From positions 5,408,001 through 5,472,000 of the forward strand of contig OZ242029.1 of the NCBI GenBank assembly GCA_965205015.1: a stretch of DNA of 64,000 nucleotides. Reading direction: 5' to 3'. Under the pieces are notes generated by a model. It worked only from the letters and a program-made list of their open reading frames with translations. It was not told the DNA's origin and did no database searches. The stretch is from Candidatus Poribacteria bacterium (GTDB lineage: Bacteria; Poribacteria; WGA-4E; WGA-3G). A program made the translations under genes and the position numbers. Of the stretch, positions 19,003-25,008 are shown one piece after another (within the stretch, counting starts at the first letter, position 1; each line of letters starts with the position of its first letter).

Positions 19003-19926
19003 ACCCAAGTTGCCAGTTAGTAGGTAGTTGTAAATCCATGGGACCTCCTTTATAGTGTTTTTATACATAAAAAACTCAAAGGAGTATCCCATGGACTTGA
19101 CTATTGTAGAAGTTTACACGATTTGTGACGACTTTTTAATCGCAGCAGGCCACCAAGAGCATCCCTTGGCTAAAATGTCAGATGCTGAAGTCATGACGAC
19201 CGCTCTGATTGCCGCAAGATACTTTGGCGGGAATCAACACACGGCTTGTGCCGCCTTGAAAACCCTTGGATATATTCCAAACATGTTAGGACACTCGCGA
19301 TATAATCGCAGACTTCATCGGATCCGTGGTGTGTTTCAAACGCTGTTTGAACACTTCGCAGAGATATTCAAAGCAGAGAATCCGAATCAGATTTATAGCA
19401 TTGATACGTATCCGGTTTCCGTCTGCGACCCCATTCGCATTTCACGCTCACGCTTGTATCAAGGCGAAGCCTGGCGAGGAAGGATCGCAAGTAAACATCG
19501 CTATTTTTATGGTCTCAAGGCACATCTGATGGTCACTGAAGCCGGACATATCGTTGAAGCGTTCTTCACACCGGGACGTTGCAGTGATGTGCGAGGCTTA
19601 CGGTGTTATGGGTTCGATTTACCGCCGGGAGCCGTCGTCTATGCGGATAAGGCGTATTGCGATTATGCCATCGAAGATGCTTTACAAGAAGCAAGGATTA
19701 CGTTGAAACCCTTACGCAAGAAGAACGCCAAGCGTCAATATCCACCGTGGGAAGTTTATCTGCAACACACCTATCGCAAGCGTGTTGAGACTTCAAACAG
19801 TCTCATTGAACAGTTGCTCCCTAAGTCGATTCATGCGGTGACCCCTGCTGGATTTGAGTTGAAGGTCTTTTTGTTTATCATCGCTACTAATATCAAACAA
19901 CTTTTTACATAGGTAGCAACTTGGGT
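19003..19926 (+). mobile_element. IS982-family insertion sequence, apparently intact
   Basis: Terminal IRs ACCCAAGTTGC / GCAACTTGGGT with flanks TATTCTA and TATTATA. Encodes one DDE transposase. Confidence 0.9.
19091..19912 (+). CDS. IS982-family transposase
   Basis: MSDAEVMT, YSIDTYPV, YFYGLKAHL, YADKAY, RKRVETSNS. ATG at 19091 after AAGGAG. Confidence 0.92.
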   Translation: MDLTIVEVYTICDDFLIAAGHQEHPLAKMSDAEVMTTALIAARYFGGNQHTACAALKTLGYIPNMLGHSRYNRRLHRIRGVFQTLFEHFAEIFKAENPNQIYSIDTYPVSVCDPIRISRSRLYQGEAWRGRIASKHRYFYGLKAHLMVTEAGHIVEAFFTPGRCSDVRGLRCYGFDLPPGAVVYADKAYCDYAIEDALQEARITLKPLRKKNAKRQYPPWEVYLQHTYRKRVETSNSLIEQLLPKSIHAVTPAGFELKVFLFIIATNIKQLFT

Positions 19927-20075: not shown

Positions 20076-21023
20076 CTATTGTGGATAGACATACAGATGA
20101 AACACATCGCCGGGCGCGATATCCTCACCCATCAGGCGCAAATCTTTCGATTGCTCCTGCGTGATGTCGACATGCTGGATATAGGCGTAATTCCCGCTAT
20201 AACGGAGGTCGGCGTGCGTGAACTCGATCCGCCGACCGAACCGGTTGCGGCGGTGCGGGGCAGAACGTTGCGTCCACGCGAGCCGAAACGCTGCTGGCAA
20301 CCCATCTTGGATGCGTTGACCCGCTGCTGCCCGCAATGTGAGACCGTTTACATCATAGGCAAGACCGGTAAGCGTGAGACTGTAGAGGCGTGTTGACCCT
20401 GACCAGAAATAGCCCGTCTCTGCGATTGCGGTGAACTCTACAGCGTCGTTGTGAGAGGGGTTCGCGCTCGTATCCGCGGGGATACTGCGCTCTACAGGCG
20501 TGTTGTCTATCGGTCTGCCGTCTGTCGAAGCGTTTTGATACATCAATGAGATTTCCCACGTGTTTTCACGCAACTTCAACGCGTCGGTAAAGATAAATCT
20601 GACGTTCTCGTGTCTGCCGACACCAAAACGCTGGAAATCCGATTCGTTTCGGAAGTTCAAAAAGAAGTAGATGAACTGCGGAATCCCGTTATGCGTCCAG
20701 CGGGTCGCATGGGGCGGGTGAGAGCCCGTGCTCAGGCGCACCCACCGATTCTCCCGTTCAGAACGTCTCACACGCCGAGACCTATACAAAACCTCACACG
20801 CTGCGAGTCTGAATTCCTCGCCGGCTATGTCGTCGATACCGACAGCGTGTTTCGCGGCATACGGAAAAATCAACTCGTCAATCGTGATCGCATCGGGCGT
20901 CCATGAGGGTGCAGCGGGGACAGTCTCATCAGTCAGTGGCAGGGTCCTATTGACAACCCCTTCGTCACCGCAGCCTGATAGCAATGTGATGAAAAAAAGG
21001 CACGTGAAAAAGTTGCGTAACAT
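20076..21023 (-). CDS. putative lipoprotein of unknown function
   Basis: MLRNFFTCLFFITLLSG-C lipobox and GGAGG RBS. Confidence 0.7.
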   Translation of the reverse strand: MLRNFFTCLFFITLLSGCGDEGVVNRTLPLTDETVPAAPSWTPDAITIDELIFPYAAKHAVGIDDIAGEEFRLAACEVLYRSRRVRRSERENRWVRLSTGSHPPHATRWTHNGIPQFIYFFLNFRNESDFQRFGVGRHENVRFIFTDALKLRENTWEISLMYQNASTDGRPIDNTPVERSIPADTSANPSHNDAVEFTAIAETGYFWSGSTRLYSLTLTGLAYDVNGLTLRAAAGQRIQDGLPAAFRLAWTQRSAPHRRNRFGRRIEFTHADLRYSGNYAYIQHVDITQEQSKDLRLMGEDIAPGDVFHLYVYPQ

Positions 21024-21278: not shown

Positions 21279-21309
21279 CCCCAAAGGCAATCTTTTAGAC
21301 GTATCCATC

Positions 21310-21504
21310 TCAAGATTTTCTATATTTTCGGATCAACGCCCCGATACCATAGCAGATCGGCACCCAGACAGCCGTTGCTATCAAATACATTGGCCATCTC
21401 TCAATCGAGTAGATGAAGCCAACAACCCATGTCACGATTGCAACCGTTTTCATCCATCTTTGCTTGAAGGCGACAAAAAGAACCACAGAAATCAGAAAAA
21501 TCAC
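21310..21504 (-). CDS. small hydrophobic membrane protein (64 aa)
   Basis: AAGGAG RBS before the GTG start, two to three hydrophobic segments and a basic C-terminus (RKYRKS). Confidence 0.55.
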   Translation of the reverse strand: MIFLISVVLFVAFKQRWMKTVAIVTWVVGFIYSIERWPMYLIATAVWVPICYGIGALIRKYRKS

Positions 21505-21570
21505 GCCAAAAAACTCCTTACGTGCTAAAGACGCTCGCGAAAAACGAGATTTATACAGGATTCGCCTGTC

Positions 21571-21655
21571 GCCTGCTAAAACCGCTTTCCACGGCGGTGG
21601 ATAGCACTCGCAACGGAGATTGTTGCGAGGTGGAAACGCTATCCAACAGGCTTAT
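21571..21655 (-). ncRNA. putative structured RNA with a three-way junction and pseudoknot
   Basis: P1 GCCUGUU/AGCAGGC, P2 GGAUAGC/GCUAUCC, P3 CUCGCAAC/GUUGCGAG, P4 ACCGC/GCGGU. The bulge UUUCCAC is complementary to the P4 loop GUGGAAA. It begins right at the predicted transcription start. Confidence 0.65.
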
Positions 21656-21660
21656 GTCGT

Positions 21661-21690
21661 ATTATACACTGTTTGCGGGGGAACCGTCAA
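21661..21690 (-). promoter_or_regulatory. near-consensus sigma70 promoter
   Basis: TTGACG-N18-TATAAT on the minus strand, with an A-rich upstream tract. Confidence 0.7.
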
Positions 21691-21705
21691 GTTTTTGTTT
21701 TATAA

Positions 21706-24700
21706 TCACTGATATGCTTCGTTGTCAAGTAAAGCCAAGTACAACTTATAGAACGCCACGCTTTCTTGAAGTCTCGATCCTGTTAACATTTCATGGAGAG
21801 AATTAATCAAACGTTCGAGAGACTTCGGATCATTCTGCGAACTGCGCAGACTTCTAAACACTTCAAGTGTTTGCTTCCTAAAGTTGTCAAATGCCACTGA
21901 ATTCTCAGCCAATTTTCCCCAATATTGTTCATCGTCAGGAAAAGATTCGATAATTCCACTATCTCCAAGAACATTGGTCGTTAACGTCCCAATGGGTAAA
22001 GCCCCATTTTCTTTCGGGCTAATATTCCCCACCGGTTTTATATGTTCAAAGTAGCCTGATACCTCCTGATTGATCGGGTGAAATAACTCCCGACAGGCTC
22101 GCCAGTGCAACTTTATCTCCTCCAACCGTTGGCTAAATCGACGTTCTTCCTCAATCGCATCCAAATCGAACTTATCAGAATTTTTATCAATGTGAACGGG
22201 GTCTTCATCTCCATTTCGATACCTATCCTGAGCTTTATCATAGGCTTCCTTGAGTTGCTTGCTAACAAGAATATCGTTAATGGTGTAGCCAGCTTCCATC
22301 AGATAAAGCACCTGGAGGCTTGGGACAGGAAAATTACCTTCGAATTCCGCTTGTGTTTTAAATCTCAAATCTTCGTCGTCATTCTCAGGTTGAGCAAAGA
22401 GATAGCGGAAAAGTCTTGTTGTGCCACCTTGTTGCTCGAATTTTAATCGGTAGTTCTCATAGTTGGGAGTGAATTCTTGATAAGGACTTGAACGCTTATG
22501 GGCATCCTTGTCAAAAGAAAAATTGGCAAAAGAAAAATTGGGCGCAACTTCATTAAAAGATTCTCTTAACATATCTCTTACAGCCCACTTGAAAGCATCA
22601 GGTTCAGCCCTGAGTAGGAGATCAATTAACTTTTCAAGCGGTGTTTCCGAAAGGACGCGCTGCCCTAAAACATGAGCTACATTTTTGTCTGAGAAATTGC
22701 GATCTGATCCTACAATTAAACCAAATGCTTGCTCGATAGCAGCGATTTCCGTTGCTACGTTGCTGAGTAAGCCATCAATCTCCGCCAACATACGCTCAAA
22801 AGTTATTGAAATCCAGTGATTAACGAGCCTATCATGATACTCCTGTTGAAGCCACTTCAGTGCCGGTTCAAGTTTATCAATATCAATAACGTCCCGATTT
22901 CGTTTATCCCTTCCAAAGATTCCTGTGCTAATCTCTTCAGTTGCAATAGCACCGTCCACGGCATTATCCGCATCTGTTTTGAGATTAGGATCCGCTGCAG
23001 AGTTCAACCCTTTCTGATTTTTTTCAATAAGGTTTTTAACCTCGCGAAGAAAATCTGACTTTGGCTTGAGTTGACAATACCCCTTGAGATTTCTCAACTT
23101 TTGGTCCAAGTCTTTACGAAATTGACGACGATACTGGTCACTATTTTTTTCAAAGACAGTACCATATGCTCCCTTAGGCGTCCATGAATGTAAATAAGAC
23201 TCAGCTTTCATCTTGGCTGTTTTGCGATCATGTGGATCAAATTTAGGAACGGAGGGGTTAATGGCGTCGTCGGTTTGAGAAATTTTTGCTCTTACATCGT
23301 CGAAAGAAACCAGTGTATTCGGGTCAGCAACACCACCTGCAGGGGGACTTTTTCTCCAGCGATCGCGAAGTATCCGAGTAAACCCTTCAACAGTAGAGGT
23401 AATGGTTGAATATTTAGGTTTCCCAGTGATCTCTACCCCAGAACTGAACATGTACTGGACAAATTCCCCACCCTGCCTCACTTGTCCAAAACGATAGTCC
23501 CGCTTTGGGACATTTGCAAGATCTGCTTCAATGCGTGCATCAATCCCAAGACTCCGAGCGAAGAGGTCCTTCGCTGCCATTTTACTAAGTTGTTCCCTCT
23601 CAAACAAACCTTCTGAGTTTACACAATTCCAGCTTTCCATATTGGTAGCAGAAAGGAATGTGGCAACGTGAAATGGGGCTTCGTATGTGTTAATGTAAGA
23701 ACCATTAGGGAACCGAACTTCATACCGCGTTTCAGGGCGTTTATAGTAGTCTAACTCAACGAGACTTGCGTAGCAGTTTGCTAACAAAATAGCCGAGTCG
23801 CCACCTAAAGCAAGTCCCTCATTATACATTGTAAAGATACCGTAAATTCGAGTATCCGCATTTCCGATGTGCCGGAAGTAATAAGCAATGTCCAACAACA
23901 TCCCGCTGCATGTTCCACCGCAGAGGGTTCCCACAAGAAACACGTTGTGTTTCTGATTATCAACATTGATTGCGCTATTGAAATGGTTCTTTAGAAATCT
24001 CTCGGCTTCGTTCTTATGATCTGGGTGTAAGAAAGCATGATATGCCTGAGTGAGTTTGGGTCTAACCGTATTATTCCATTTTTCCCAGAGCGATAAGCGC
24101 CCTGCCATTCGGAGGTTCCCGGCACCCGCACCCGCAAGCTTTACAGATTCGCTATCCAATATCCTTTTATCCAGCCATTTCGCTAGATATTTATCGTATA
24201 CCGGACTCTCTGGGTCTATTCTTTCACGGATCGGATCGGTATACGGGATAGATGTGTGGACAACATCATTAACTTCGTACGGCTTTGGCTTCAATCCTTC
24301 CTGAATTTTAGGGACGCCGCTTTCATACCAACCTTGAATACGATTCTCACCATCCAAGTGAAGATCTTTGCCATTATTCGTCTCATCGGTCTCAATGGAT
24401 ACATATCTGAAAATAGGAAGTCCTGCCTGTCCATATTCGTTAAGGTTAAGTTCCCGAAGATTCGTTAGAATTTCGACACCTGTTGTTCCTAACCCTACAT
24501 ACAACGTCGGTCTGATTTCCATATTCGCACCTCTATTTACAACGGACTTTGGGGCATTTTCAGAAGATGACTGCCCCTCTGCTTGTATAAAATTATCTTC
24601 TCCCAACACTGCTGTCTCAAATTGAAACTGTGTCATCGGTAAAAAACGACCGTCCCCTTGATTCTCAAAGTATTCCCAATGACTCGGACCTGCTTGCGTA

Positions 24701-25008
24701 TTGGCGAATATCCCATAACGCGTCGCTGTTACGTTAAGGTAAGCCTTTAACTGATCGGGACCGTCTCCGGTGACGCCCTCCCTCTTGCACTCTACAATAA
24801 CATCAAGAAGGACAGGAGGGCTTTTGCCTATATTTTCAGCCTCGATCCTATTTTTTTCCGCAATCAGCACAACATCGGCAGACCCTCGAGAACTAAAACT
24901 CTGAATTTGATGTTCGCACTTGGAATAAAAATCCCTGAATTTGGGTTCATTGAAATAGTTTACAACAACATCAACGACTTTAGCTTCCAGAGGCAGTTTC
25001 TCTTTCAT
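21706..25008 (-). CDS. PD-(D/E)xK (HsdR-N-like) nuclease fused to a divergent tubulin/FtsZ-like GTPase (Tubulin_2/FtsZl1 type) with a helical C-terminal region
   Basis: N-terminal SADVVL...IVECKR...QLKAY...YGIFAN. Tubulin-like PTLYVGLGTTG, SIETD, GAGAGNLRMAGRL, GTLCGGTCSGMLLDIAY, ANCYASLVEL. Visibly more AT-rich than neighbouring genes. Confidence 0.8.
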   Translation of the reverse strand: MKEKLPLEAKVVDVVVNYFNEPKFRDFYSKCEHQIQSFSSRGSADVVLIAEKNRIEAENIGKSPPVLLDVIVECKREGVTGDGPDQLKAYLNVTATRYGIFANTQAGPSHWEYFENQGDGRFLPMTQFQFETAVLGEDNFIQAEGQSSSENAPKSVVNRGANMEIRPTLYVGLGTTGVEILTNLRELNLNEYGQAGLPIFRYVSIETDETNNGKDLHLDGENRIQGWYESGVPKIQEGLKPKPYEVNDVVHTSIPYTDPIRERIDPESPVYDKYLAKWLDKRILDSESVKLAGAGAGNLRMAGRLSLWEKWNNTVRPKLTQAYHAFLHPDHKNEAERFLKNHFNSAINVDNQKHNVFLVGTLCGGTCSGMLLDIAYYFRHIGNADTRIYGIFTMYNEGLALGGDSAILLANCYASLVELDYYKRPETRYEVRFPNGSYINTYEAPFHVATFLSATNMESWNCVNSEGLFEREQLSKMAAKDLFARSLGIDARIEADLANVPKRDYRFGQVRQGGEFVQYMFSSGVEITGKPKYSTITSTVEGFTRILRDRWRKSPPAGGVADPNTLVSFDDVRAKISQTDDAINPSVPKFDPHDRKTAKMKAESYLHSWTPKGAYGTVFEKNSDQYRRQFRKDLDQKLRNLKGYCQLKPKSDFLREVKNLIEKNQKGLNSAADPNLKTDADNAVDGAIATEEISTGIFGRDKRNRDVIDIDKLEPALKWLQQEYHDRLVNHWISITFERMLAEIDGLLSNVATEIAAIEQAFGLIVGSDRNFSDKNVAHVLGQRVLSETPLEKLIDLLLRAEPDAFKWAVRDMLRESFNEVAPNFSFANFSFDKDAHKRSSPYQEFTPNYENYRLKFEQQGGTTRLFRYLFAQPENDDEDLRFKTQAEFEGNFPVPSLQVLYLMEAGYTINDILVSKQLKEAYDKAQDRYRNGDEDPVHIDKNSDKFDLDAIEEERRFSQRLEEIKLHWRACRELFHPINQEVSGYFEHIKPVGNISPKENGALPIGTLTTNVLGDSGIIESFPDDEQYWGKLAENSVAFDNFRKQTLEVFRSLRSSQNDPKSLERLINSLHEMLTGSRLQESVAFYKLYLALLDNEAYQ

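Follow-up and report, generated by a model that had tools for sequence, protein, structure and literature searches.

Introduction

Cas12 nucleases descend from TnpB elements, which attract interest as compact genome editors, and the natural expression and control of TnpB RNAs are poorly known. Transcripts in general can be protected from 5′-end-dependent decay by a helix located near their 5′ end. Protein-less derivatives of IS200/IS605 elements, the PATEs, are reported to often encode guide (omega) RNAs that are used in trans by TnpB (Meers et al., PMC10055086). In Salmonella, processing of the IS200 tnpA transcript is reported to release a structured small RNA, 5′tnpA, from its 5′ end (PMC12594629), and IStrons are described as IS605/IS607 elements with a group I intron (10.1101/2023.11.20.567912; PMC13521648). 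Here we analyzed a 64,000-nt stretch of Candidatus Poribacteria contig OZ242029.1 (positions 5,408,001 to 5,472,000), in the following called the window, which encodes an 81-nt pseudoknotted RNA fold on its minus strand. This fold, designated R1, is real and represents a new RNA family; most of its copies are the 5′-terminal part of a non-coding RNA encoded by a known type of element, the protein-less IS200/IS605 derivative. The window copy is a solo module of this family and probably acts as a 5′-terminal structural cap or leader.

Results

A pseudoknotted fold behind a near-consensus promoter

All coordinates given are window positions, and the R1 site is read on the minus strand. A sequence-only reading of the window had described a pseudoknotted structured RNA starting behind a strong promoter, and the parts of both were found where they had been placed:

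21690-21685, minus strand: -35 hexamer with five of six consensus matches, followed by a spacer of 18 nt; found at the same position in the family copies
21666-21661, minus strand: -10 hexamer, perfect consensus
21651-21571, minus strand: structured domain R1 (81 nt), defined by the minimum free energy (MFE) fold and family covariation
21651-21645 with 21577-21571, minus strand: helix P1, 7 bp including one G-U pair, which closes a three-way junction
21644-21637 with 21606-21599, minus strand: helix P2, eight pairs including one G-U pair
21636-21630, minus strand: bulge of 7 nt between P2 and P3 in the same arm
21629-21622 with 21614-21607, minus strand: helix P3, 8 bp
21598-21594 with 21585-21581, minus strand: helix P4, 5 bp, the second arm of the junction
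21592-21586, minus strand: pseudoknot strand of 7 nt in the P4 loop, fully complementary to the bulge 21636-21630

The promoter is of the sigma-70 type and matches 11 of 12 consensus positions, and an A-rich tract lies immediately 5′ of the -35 hexamer. Based on the promoter geometry, transcription would start at about 21655-21652, which is 1-4 nt ahead of P1. Promoter-like sites were not enriched locally (two found versus 2.0 ± 1.3 expected in 1.2 kb), and the weight of the window promoter comes from its conservation across the family copies described below. No terminator-like site was found near the R1 domain.

The nested helices of R1 are the MFE structure of the domain, with -37.2 kcal/mol (z = -5.25) compared to -21.9 ± 2.9 kcal/mol for shuffled sequences, none of which (0/200) was as stable. 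In addition, seven of the eight nucleotides of the P4 loop are complementary to the bulge, giving a 7-bp pseudoknot. The plus strand was as stable by energy (-38.3 kcal/mol, z = -5.51), and hence the strand was not chosen by this means. The sequence-only reading had noted that the G-U pairs work on the minus strand only. In the family, G-U pairs are frequent at several positions where the opposite strand would have mismatches; the minus strand is set by these pairs together with the promoter, whereas energy alone does not pick a strand.

The fold had not been recognized as a known ribozyme or riboswitch, and the Rfam comparison that had been proposed agreed with this. Rfam 15 gave no match in the window at the gathering threshold and, at E ≤ 10 over 21300-21900, only a 15-bit microRNA match elsewhere. 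In the loci of seven relatives, only tRNAs passed and no intron family appeared at E ≤ 1. A hammerhead, twister or other ribozyme was rejected on the grounds of no Rfam match and no conserved junction nucleotides, and a group I intron or IStron on those of the internal promoter, the different helix order and no Rfam match.

R1 represents a conserved RNA family in the Poribacteria group

Homologs of the window site were sought both via the upstream gene, which encodes a protein of 1100 amino acids, and with the RNA region itself. The protein has 55 relatives in a large protein collection. A search with its single sequence alone yielded no relative locus among species genomes, while a profile built from 24 relatives yielded 15 loci, the best of them labeled Candidatus Poribacteria. 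A DNA search of five related genomes gave nothing above chance level. Among 175 genomes of the phylum, six matched the RNA region at E ≤ 0.01; four of them contained clear RNA homologs (3, 2, 1, and 1 copies), and the other two only matches of 23-25 nt outside the fold.

A covariance model, likewise named R1, was then seeded with the window site and seven copies, the pseudoknot being absent from the model. At E ≤ 0.01 it gave about 244 matches in 69 of 150 Poribacteria-group genomes, 150 of which were listed individually and 94 counted further; two genomes had at least 25 candidates. The window scored 107.7 bits, partly by construction as it is one of the eight seeds. A distant blastn search of a phage collection gave no match, and a pattern scan of metagenomes returned five stretches, none of which was a real member (best model score 14.6 bits, E = 0.23). 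The same scan of viral contigs found one real R1 copy, on an IMG/VR contig and inside a full element. In contigs of three sequencing runs the window sequence was identical or the RNA was uncovered, and no variants were seen.

For the covariation test, we aligned 38 copies, each of a different source, with the model and added the pseudoknot by hand. Standard pairs were present in 90.4% of 1483 cells compared to 67.7 ± 0.8% after shuffling, and none of 500 shuffles reached the observed value. When partners were slid by 1-3 columns, only 34-44% of the cells paired. Changes on both sides occurred in 33 of 40 pairs, with compensatory changes in every helix and in the pseudoknot, so that the proposed test by homologs and covariation came out in favor of the fold. 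The alignment is fitted to the nested helices and favors them, but the unmodeled pseudoknot provides independent evidence: the complementarity of bulge and loop over 7 nt, first noticed in the window, is retained in the family with 98.5% of the cells pairing and five of seven pairs doubly changed. These data demonstrate that R1 is a genuine, conserved and selected pseudoknotted RNA and not a chance fold.

Within the fold, all columns conserved in at least 90% of the copies lie in helices, mainly in P2, the sequence of which is near-invariant across the family, and at the ends of the pseudoknot. No unpaired nucleotide of the fold reached 90% in the 38 copies; the strands of the junction are short and lack conserved nucleotides. 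The promoter located a few nucleotides before the closing helix is a feature shared by the window copy and the family. A match of at least 9 of 12 positions at the fixed distance was present in 35 of the 38 copies and in 7.1% of 760 control windows. We found no paper describing the R1 fold, its promoter-driven use, its cousin in tnpB leaders or the solo copies, although supplements may hold related motifs.

Most R1 copies form the 5′ end of protein-less IS200/IS605-type elements

To compare the surroundings of the copies, we clustered 29 loci, each the best match of a different genome, together with the window; the locus L062 was examined separately. A long non-coding tail is common to 21 of the 29 loci, which fall into clusters of 17 and 4. 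One genome contains 21 copies (20 + one) in two subfamilies of 12 and 9. In both subfamilies the copies are sharply delimited on the left and on the right, with unrelated sequence beyond, and their subterminal hairpins have the same orientation. Several near-identical copies in unrelated surroundings were thus found among the relatives in another genome, and the 64-kb window contains a single R1 copy. At the left end of the elements, an imperfect hairpin lies about 40-60 nt before the promoter, and a similar hairpin lies a few nucleotides ahead of the last base at the right end. Two full elements are 393 and 453 bp long, and no open reading frame (ORF) is present in these elements of about 390-450 bp.

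The first 53-82 nt and the last ~100 nt of the elements match TnpB-encoding loci, one of which also has an ORF resembling a Y1 transposase (the translation was read by eye). Matches to the zinc-ribbon TnpB domain were present in all five genomes searched (G107, 97; G110, 94; G151, 55; G173, 54; G131, 15). This is the architecture of IS200/IS605 elements and their protein-less derivatives (PATEs), and in most copies R1 makes up the 5′ end of the non-coding RNA that such a derivative encodes. As judged from the sequence, promoter and R1 fold would begin an element RNA of 300-370 nt, the last ~100 nt of which correspond to the right-end region shared with TnpB elements and are the predicted guide-RNA scaffold; the shared region is not the R1 domain. 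The sequence-only reading had named a match to an ordinary dispersed repeat among the outcomes that would undo its proposal. R1 is indeed dispersed, largely on this non-autonomous element, but the covariation shows that what is dispersed is a selected RNA fold.

Alternatively, the fold could be a new self-cleaving ribozyme that trims the 5′ part of the RNA, or a top-strand DNA structure used by the transposase. Small folds that are associated with transposons and present in many copies are often ribozymes, and the fold and the end hairpins share one strand. However, no Rfam ribozyme family matched, the short junction strands lack conservation, and the promoter at a fixed distance as well as the intact solo copies without element ends argue for an RNA role that is independent of transposition. 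We regard both variants as highly improbable.

Several features of individual genomes and loci were noted in passing. The TnpB counts of G107, G110, G151, G173 and G131 represent a very heavy IS200/IS605 load for genomes of 5-6.7 Mb. In L072, a nested insertion lies in the RNA body about 330-540 bases after the fold and contains a ~90-nt unit twice in tandem. In L029 (region 1905-2065), a full element is located directly upstream of two tRNA genes. In L088, the left end of a TnpB insertion sequence is preceded, at a distance of about 28 nt, by a protein-less element in head-to-tail arrangement, which suggests insertion beside an existing end. In L035, L036, L042 and others, the first hairpin of the RNA body, about 15-80 nt after the hairpin P5 described below, has a stem resembling P2 by eye and may have arisen by duplication within the element.

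A second copy of the P1 3′ strand follows the fold

In R1 members, including the one in the window, the P1 3′ strand occurs a second time directly downstream, where it is part of a short hairpin:

21570-21564, minus strand: repeat of the P1 3′ strand, able to pair with the P1 5′ strand or to form P5
21569-21565 with 21559-21555, minus strand: hairpin P5, within 21570-21555
21554-21548, minus strand: A-rich tract 3′ of P5, apparently single-stranded; taken from alignment A4, with a similar tract in most family copies

The alternative pairing of this repeat had been read from the window and proved to be a conserved trait of the family. The mean longest complementary run of the P1 5′ strand was 6.55 with its own partner and 5.76 with the next segment, compared to about 4.2 (4.22) for cross-pairs between copies. 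In the window, P1 together with P5 is the MFE structure with -43.5 kcal/mol, while the alternative register has -38.8 kcal/mol and the structure with P1 open -34.4 kcal/mol. The P5 hairpin is weakly supported in alignment A4, with 65.5% of cells paired in a part that is poorly aligned. One column of the A-rich tract reaches 90% A in the family alignment.

Cleavage at, for example, the A-rich tract after P5 would separate the domain as a stable RNA of ~105 nt that might act in trans. A compact and very stable fold followed by a conserved A-rich single-stranded tract would suit such a small RNA, as would the conserved strong promoter, and with 5′tnpA a small RNA processed from a 5′ leader is reported for this transposon superfamily (PMC12594629). 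However, there is no terminator-like site nearby, the cleavage itself is a prediction, and the loops covary freely, so that no conserved target-pairing seed is visible. We consider this explanation quite unlikely.

A fold of the same topology precedes tnpB

The model R1 matched one of ten TnpB loci, and this match was a neighboring element. We then used a sequence-independent descriptor consisting of a 7-bp P2, a 7-nt bulge, a 6-bp P3, the P2 return strand and a 7-nt strand complementary to the bulge. It revealed a sense-strand fold at the 5′ end of tnpB in 11 of 30 loci (3/10 and 8/20 further loci); a ninth match among the 20 further loci lies beyond a tnpB 3′ end. The antisense strand of these 20 loci (46 kb) gave no match, and only one match occurred in 640 kb of shuffled sequence (five window shuffles, both strands). 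The fold in the tnpB leaders has the topology of R1 and a different sequence. Upstream of the closest TnpB genes on plasmids of other phyla it was found in none of four cases, a sample that does not suffice to infer absence.

In all 11 tnpB leaders, inspected by eye without a scripted count, the 3′ strand of the closing helix is present twice in tandem, with sequences differing by locus. The second copy ends a few nucleotides before the start codon or overlaps it, and in three leaders the ribosome-binding hexamer sits between both copies. This arrangement raises the possibility of a two-register switch, in which a factor such as TnpB, a host RNA-binding protein or a small molecule decides which copy P1 pairs with and thereby gates translation or folding downstream. 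The position of the second copy next to or over the start codon would fit such a gate, the duplicated strand covaries with P1 across subfamilies (5.76 versus 4.22 for cross-pairs), and the near-invariant P2 suggests a specific partner. On the other hand, the duplication in the tnpB leaders was counted by eye and not by script, the fold has no conserved unpaired nucleotides that could form a pocket, and the partners downstream of R1 include non-coding RNA. For the window copy, adopting the alternative register would take 4.7 kcal/mol even with the pseudoknot left out of the count. The Shine-Dalgarno-like hexamer of the downstream ORF lies about 35 nt beyond P5 and, in the MFE fold of 166 nt, is unpaired. 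The switch loses probability in the window because the second copy is locked in P5, is energetically less favorable there and is this far from the ribosome-binding site. Altogether, we rate the switch as an unlikely explanation.

The window copy is a solo module ahead of the 64-amino-acid ORF

The window copy consists of the promoter, the fold and the hairpin, and has neither transposon ends nor a guide-RNA scaffold. TnpB was not found in the 64 kb, and blastn of the two full elements against the window matched only the R1 core. A left-end subterminal hairpin of the PATE type was not found upstream of the window promoter. Only 15 nt separate the -35 hexamer from the stop codon of the upstream gene, which leaves no room for a transposon left end. 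The right-end hairpin and the guide-RNA scaffold were not found downstream of R1 in the window. The best candidate, 21528-21508, reached a local score of 24 with the right-end hairpin compared to 17.7 ± 2.9 (maximum 32) for shuffles, which is not significant, and a right-end remnant in the window was rejected for this reason. The genes next to the module are the following:

21706-25008, minus strand: upstream gene for a tubulin-like protein of 1100 amino acids, with a Tubulin_2 domain and a C-terminus that aligns with homologs
21519-21514, minus strand: Shine-Dalgarno-like hexamer of the 64-amino-acid ORF, read from the sequence
21504-21310, minus strand: ORF of 64 amino acids with a GTG start, probably a two-helix membrane protein; a downstream gene and not part of the RNA family

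Solo copies were also present in 9 of the 30 other sampled loci, in nine genomes, and all nine have the sense orientation. Eight of them consist of promoter and fold followed by an ORF that has a ribosome-binding site, and the ninth is a truncated relative without a clear ORF of this kind. The ORFs encode a ParE-like pair (three genomes), a methylase-HNH fusion, a nuclease-like protein, a protein of 146 amino acids (two genomes) and a membrane protein of 124 amino acids, and the solo copies differ from one another by compensatory changes. Taking all copies together, R1 is followed by the long non-coding tail, the ParE-like pair, the methylase-HNH fusion, the nuclease-like gene, membrane proteins or proteins without assignment.

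Homologs of the 64-amino-acid ORF were present in 14 of 175 genomes, which shows that it is a real family, and it has no Pfam family. None of the 12 fetched loci with such homologs (0/12) carries R1. The sequence-only reading had offered, among others, a riboswitch-like leader or an antitoxin, and a regulator dedicated to the small membrane protein gene had to be abandoned: apart from the lack of R1 at the homologous loci, the copies precede unrelated genes or long non-coding RNA and do not show a recurrent association with a gene or pathway, and the conserved unpaired nucleotides of a ligand pocket were not found. R1 is not a gene-specific riboswitch or antitoxin.

The lack of R1 at the 12 loci would also suit a view in which the window copy is the functionless promoter and leader of a decayed non-autonomous IS200/IS605 element, with its position before the 64-amino-acid gene being accidental. 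In a close relative (L026/L053), truncation of the element is plain to see, as the tail is missing and the left-end hairpin is present by half, and the weak right-end likeness of 21528-21508 would point in the same direction had it been significant. Against decay, all five helices and the promoter are intact in the window, and the nine other solo copies have the sense orientation and the compensatory differences described above, eight of them also the downstream ORF. On balance, we doubt that the window copy is a mere remnant.

The neighboring proteins deserve a short description. The 1100-amino-acid protein matches Tubulin_2 with E = 7.7e-39 and has a weak restriction-enzyme-like N-terminal region. 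Its 55 relatives come mostly from metagenome assemblies, the tubulin nucleotide-binding loop is invariant in the 24 that were aligned, and the protein looks like one of a conflict system. Two of the 12 homologs of the 64-amino-acid protein (L095, L096) have one in-frame TGA in the conserved region of the N-terminal helix and may be pseudogenes or cases of readthrough or recoding. An ORF of 315 amino acids (20076-21023, minus strand), located 287 nt after the 64-amino-acid ORF, has a lipoprotein-like N-terminus and no Pfam match and may be co-transcribed. Further downstream, at a distance of 1.4 kb from the small gene cluster, there is a DDE transposase ORF (19055-19912, plus strand; DDE_Tnp_1/DDE_Tnp_1_3) of an unrelated insertion sequence.

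Discussion

A probable 5′-terminal cap

In summary, the window fold is a member of the R1 family, which is native to transcripts of the IS200/IS605 type, and we favor a role as a 5′-terminal structural cap or leader. If the start site lies 1-4 nt ahead of P1, the transcript would at once have its 5′ end buried in a very stable and compact fold, which might serve as a cap or insulator. Strong promoter and fold would then drive and protect the RNA that follows, in the window the mRNA of the small membrane protein, and the module, as a portable unit, could do the same for guide RNAs, tnpB mRNAs or captured host genes. Features expected of such a design are the location of the conserved columns in helices, the proximity of P1 to the presumed start and the occurrence of P1 plus P5 as the MFE structure. 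The repeated P1 3′ strand would offer a second register for the closing helix, and in the tnpB leaders, where the second copy abuts or overlaps the start codon, a translation gate is plausible.

A number of points weigh against the cap. The stabilizing role is deduced from position and compactness alone, and the promoter and the 5′ end of the R1 transcript are read from sequence only. A cap leaves two features unexplained, namely the near-invariant P2, suggestive of a specific binding partner, and the covarying duplication of the P1 3′ strand, suggestive of a switch. An element may have left the solo copy behind recently and without a function, as perfect pairing cannot separate a recent insertion from selection. 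The direction of evolution might have been either way, with a transposon leader captured by genes or a host leader captured by the transposon. Finally, G-U pairs would be tolerated as G-T pairs in single-stranded top-strand DNA, and the strand asymmetry alone does not separate an RNA role from a DNA-level role inside the elements.

A more far-reaching proposal is that R1 and its cousins in the tnpB leaders form a new class of transposon RNA switches. In this proposal, the use of one or the other of the two tandem 3′ strands would set TnpB translation and, in the protein-less elements, the production or loading of the guide RNA, and the solo copies would have been domesticated as portable expression modules for accessory genes. 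We put this forward as a tentative idea with rather low expectation. Should a two-register helix indeed gate translation or RNA maturation, this would reveal a new point at which RNA-guided transposon nucleases are controlled. With a cap function, the compact 5′ module could be a natural stabilizer for guide RNAs. For the window, the analysis replaces the idea of a gene-specific riboswitch by that of a transposon-type promoter and leader placed before a host gene.

Comparison with known systems

The P4 CI and P1 C4 RNAs and the Poribacteria-1 motif resemble R1 as small structured RNAs of mobile elements or of the phylum, and the sequence-only reading had pointed to a loose likeness to the former. 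The Rfam 15 scans of the window at gathering scores and of 21300-21900 at E ≤ 10 do not bear out such a likeness, given that the C4/CI-type and Poribacteria-1 families are, as we assume, contained in the Rfam library. A literature search for the Poribacteria-1 motif gave no result.

The THF-I riboswitch is a three-way junction with a pseudoknot between a loop and an internal loop. R1 is similar in having a closing helix and two arms, with the loop of one arm pairing with the bulge of the other, and in the alternative partner of the 3′ strand of the closing helix. It differs in that it has no Rfam match, no conserved unpaired nucleotides and no consistent downstream gene, and in that it is present in many copies per genome and in transposons.

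The ompA leader is a 5′-terminal stem-loop that stabilizes a bacterial mRNA, since a helix in this position hinders 5′-end-dependent decay. Similarly, the R1 helix would start within a few nucleotides of the presumed 5′ end. R1 is far more elaborate, with a three-way junction, a pseudoknot and a conserved P2, and a stabilization by R1 is putative.

In IStrons, a structured RNA is likewise reported to be located near the left end of a TnpB element and has functions that overlap with the guide RNA at the right end. R1, in contrast, follows an internal promoter, its order of helices is not that of a group I core, and no intron family was found at E ≤ 1 in seven element loci.

Like R1, 5′tnpA is described as a highly structured 5′-leader RNA of an IS200/IS605-superfamily transcript that may have an independent life. 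It belongs to the tnpA gene rather than to tnpB or a non-coding tail and to another organism, and the two are likened by description and not by sequence or fold.

The closest relatives of R1 elements are the PATEs. The R1 relatives reside in multi-copy elements of ~390-450 bp with subterminal hairpins at both ends, no ORF and a 3′ region shared with TnpB elements. They differ by their own consensus promoter and a pseudoknotted 5′ domain of ~105 nt before the scaffold, neither of which appears in the part of the PATE description at hand (PMC10055086). The window copy lacks ends and scaffold and is thus not itself a PATE. R1 marks the 5′ end of protein-less guide-RNA elements that are predicted to be promoter-driven, and a fold of the same topology leads the tnpB mRNAs in one phylum.

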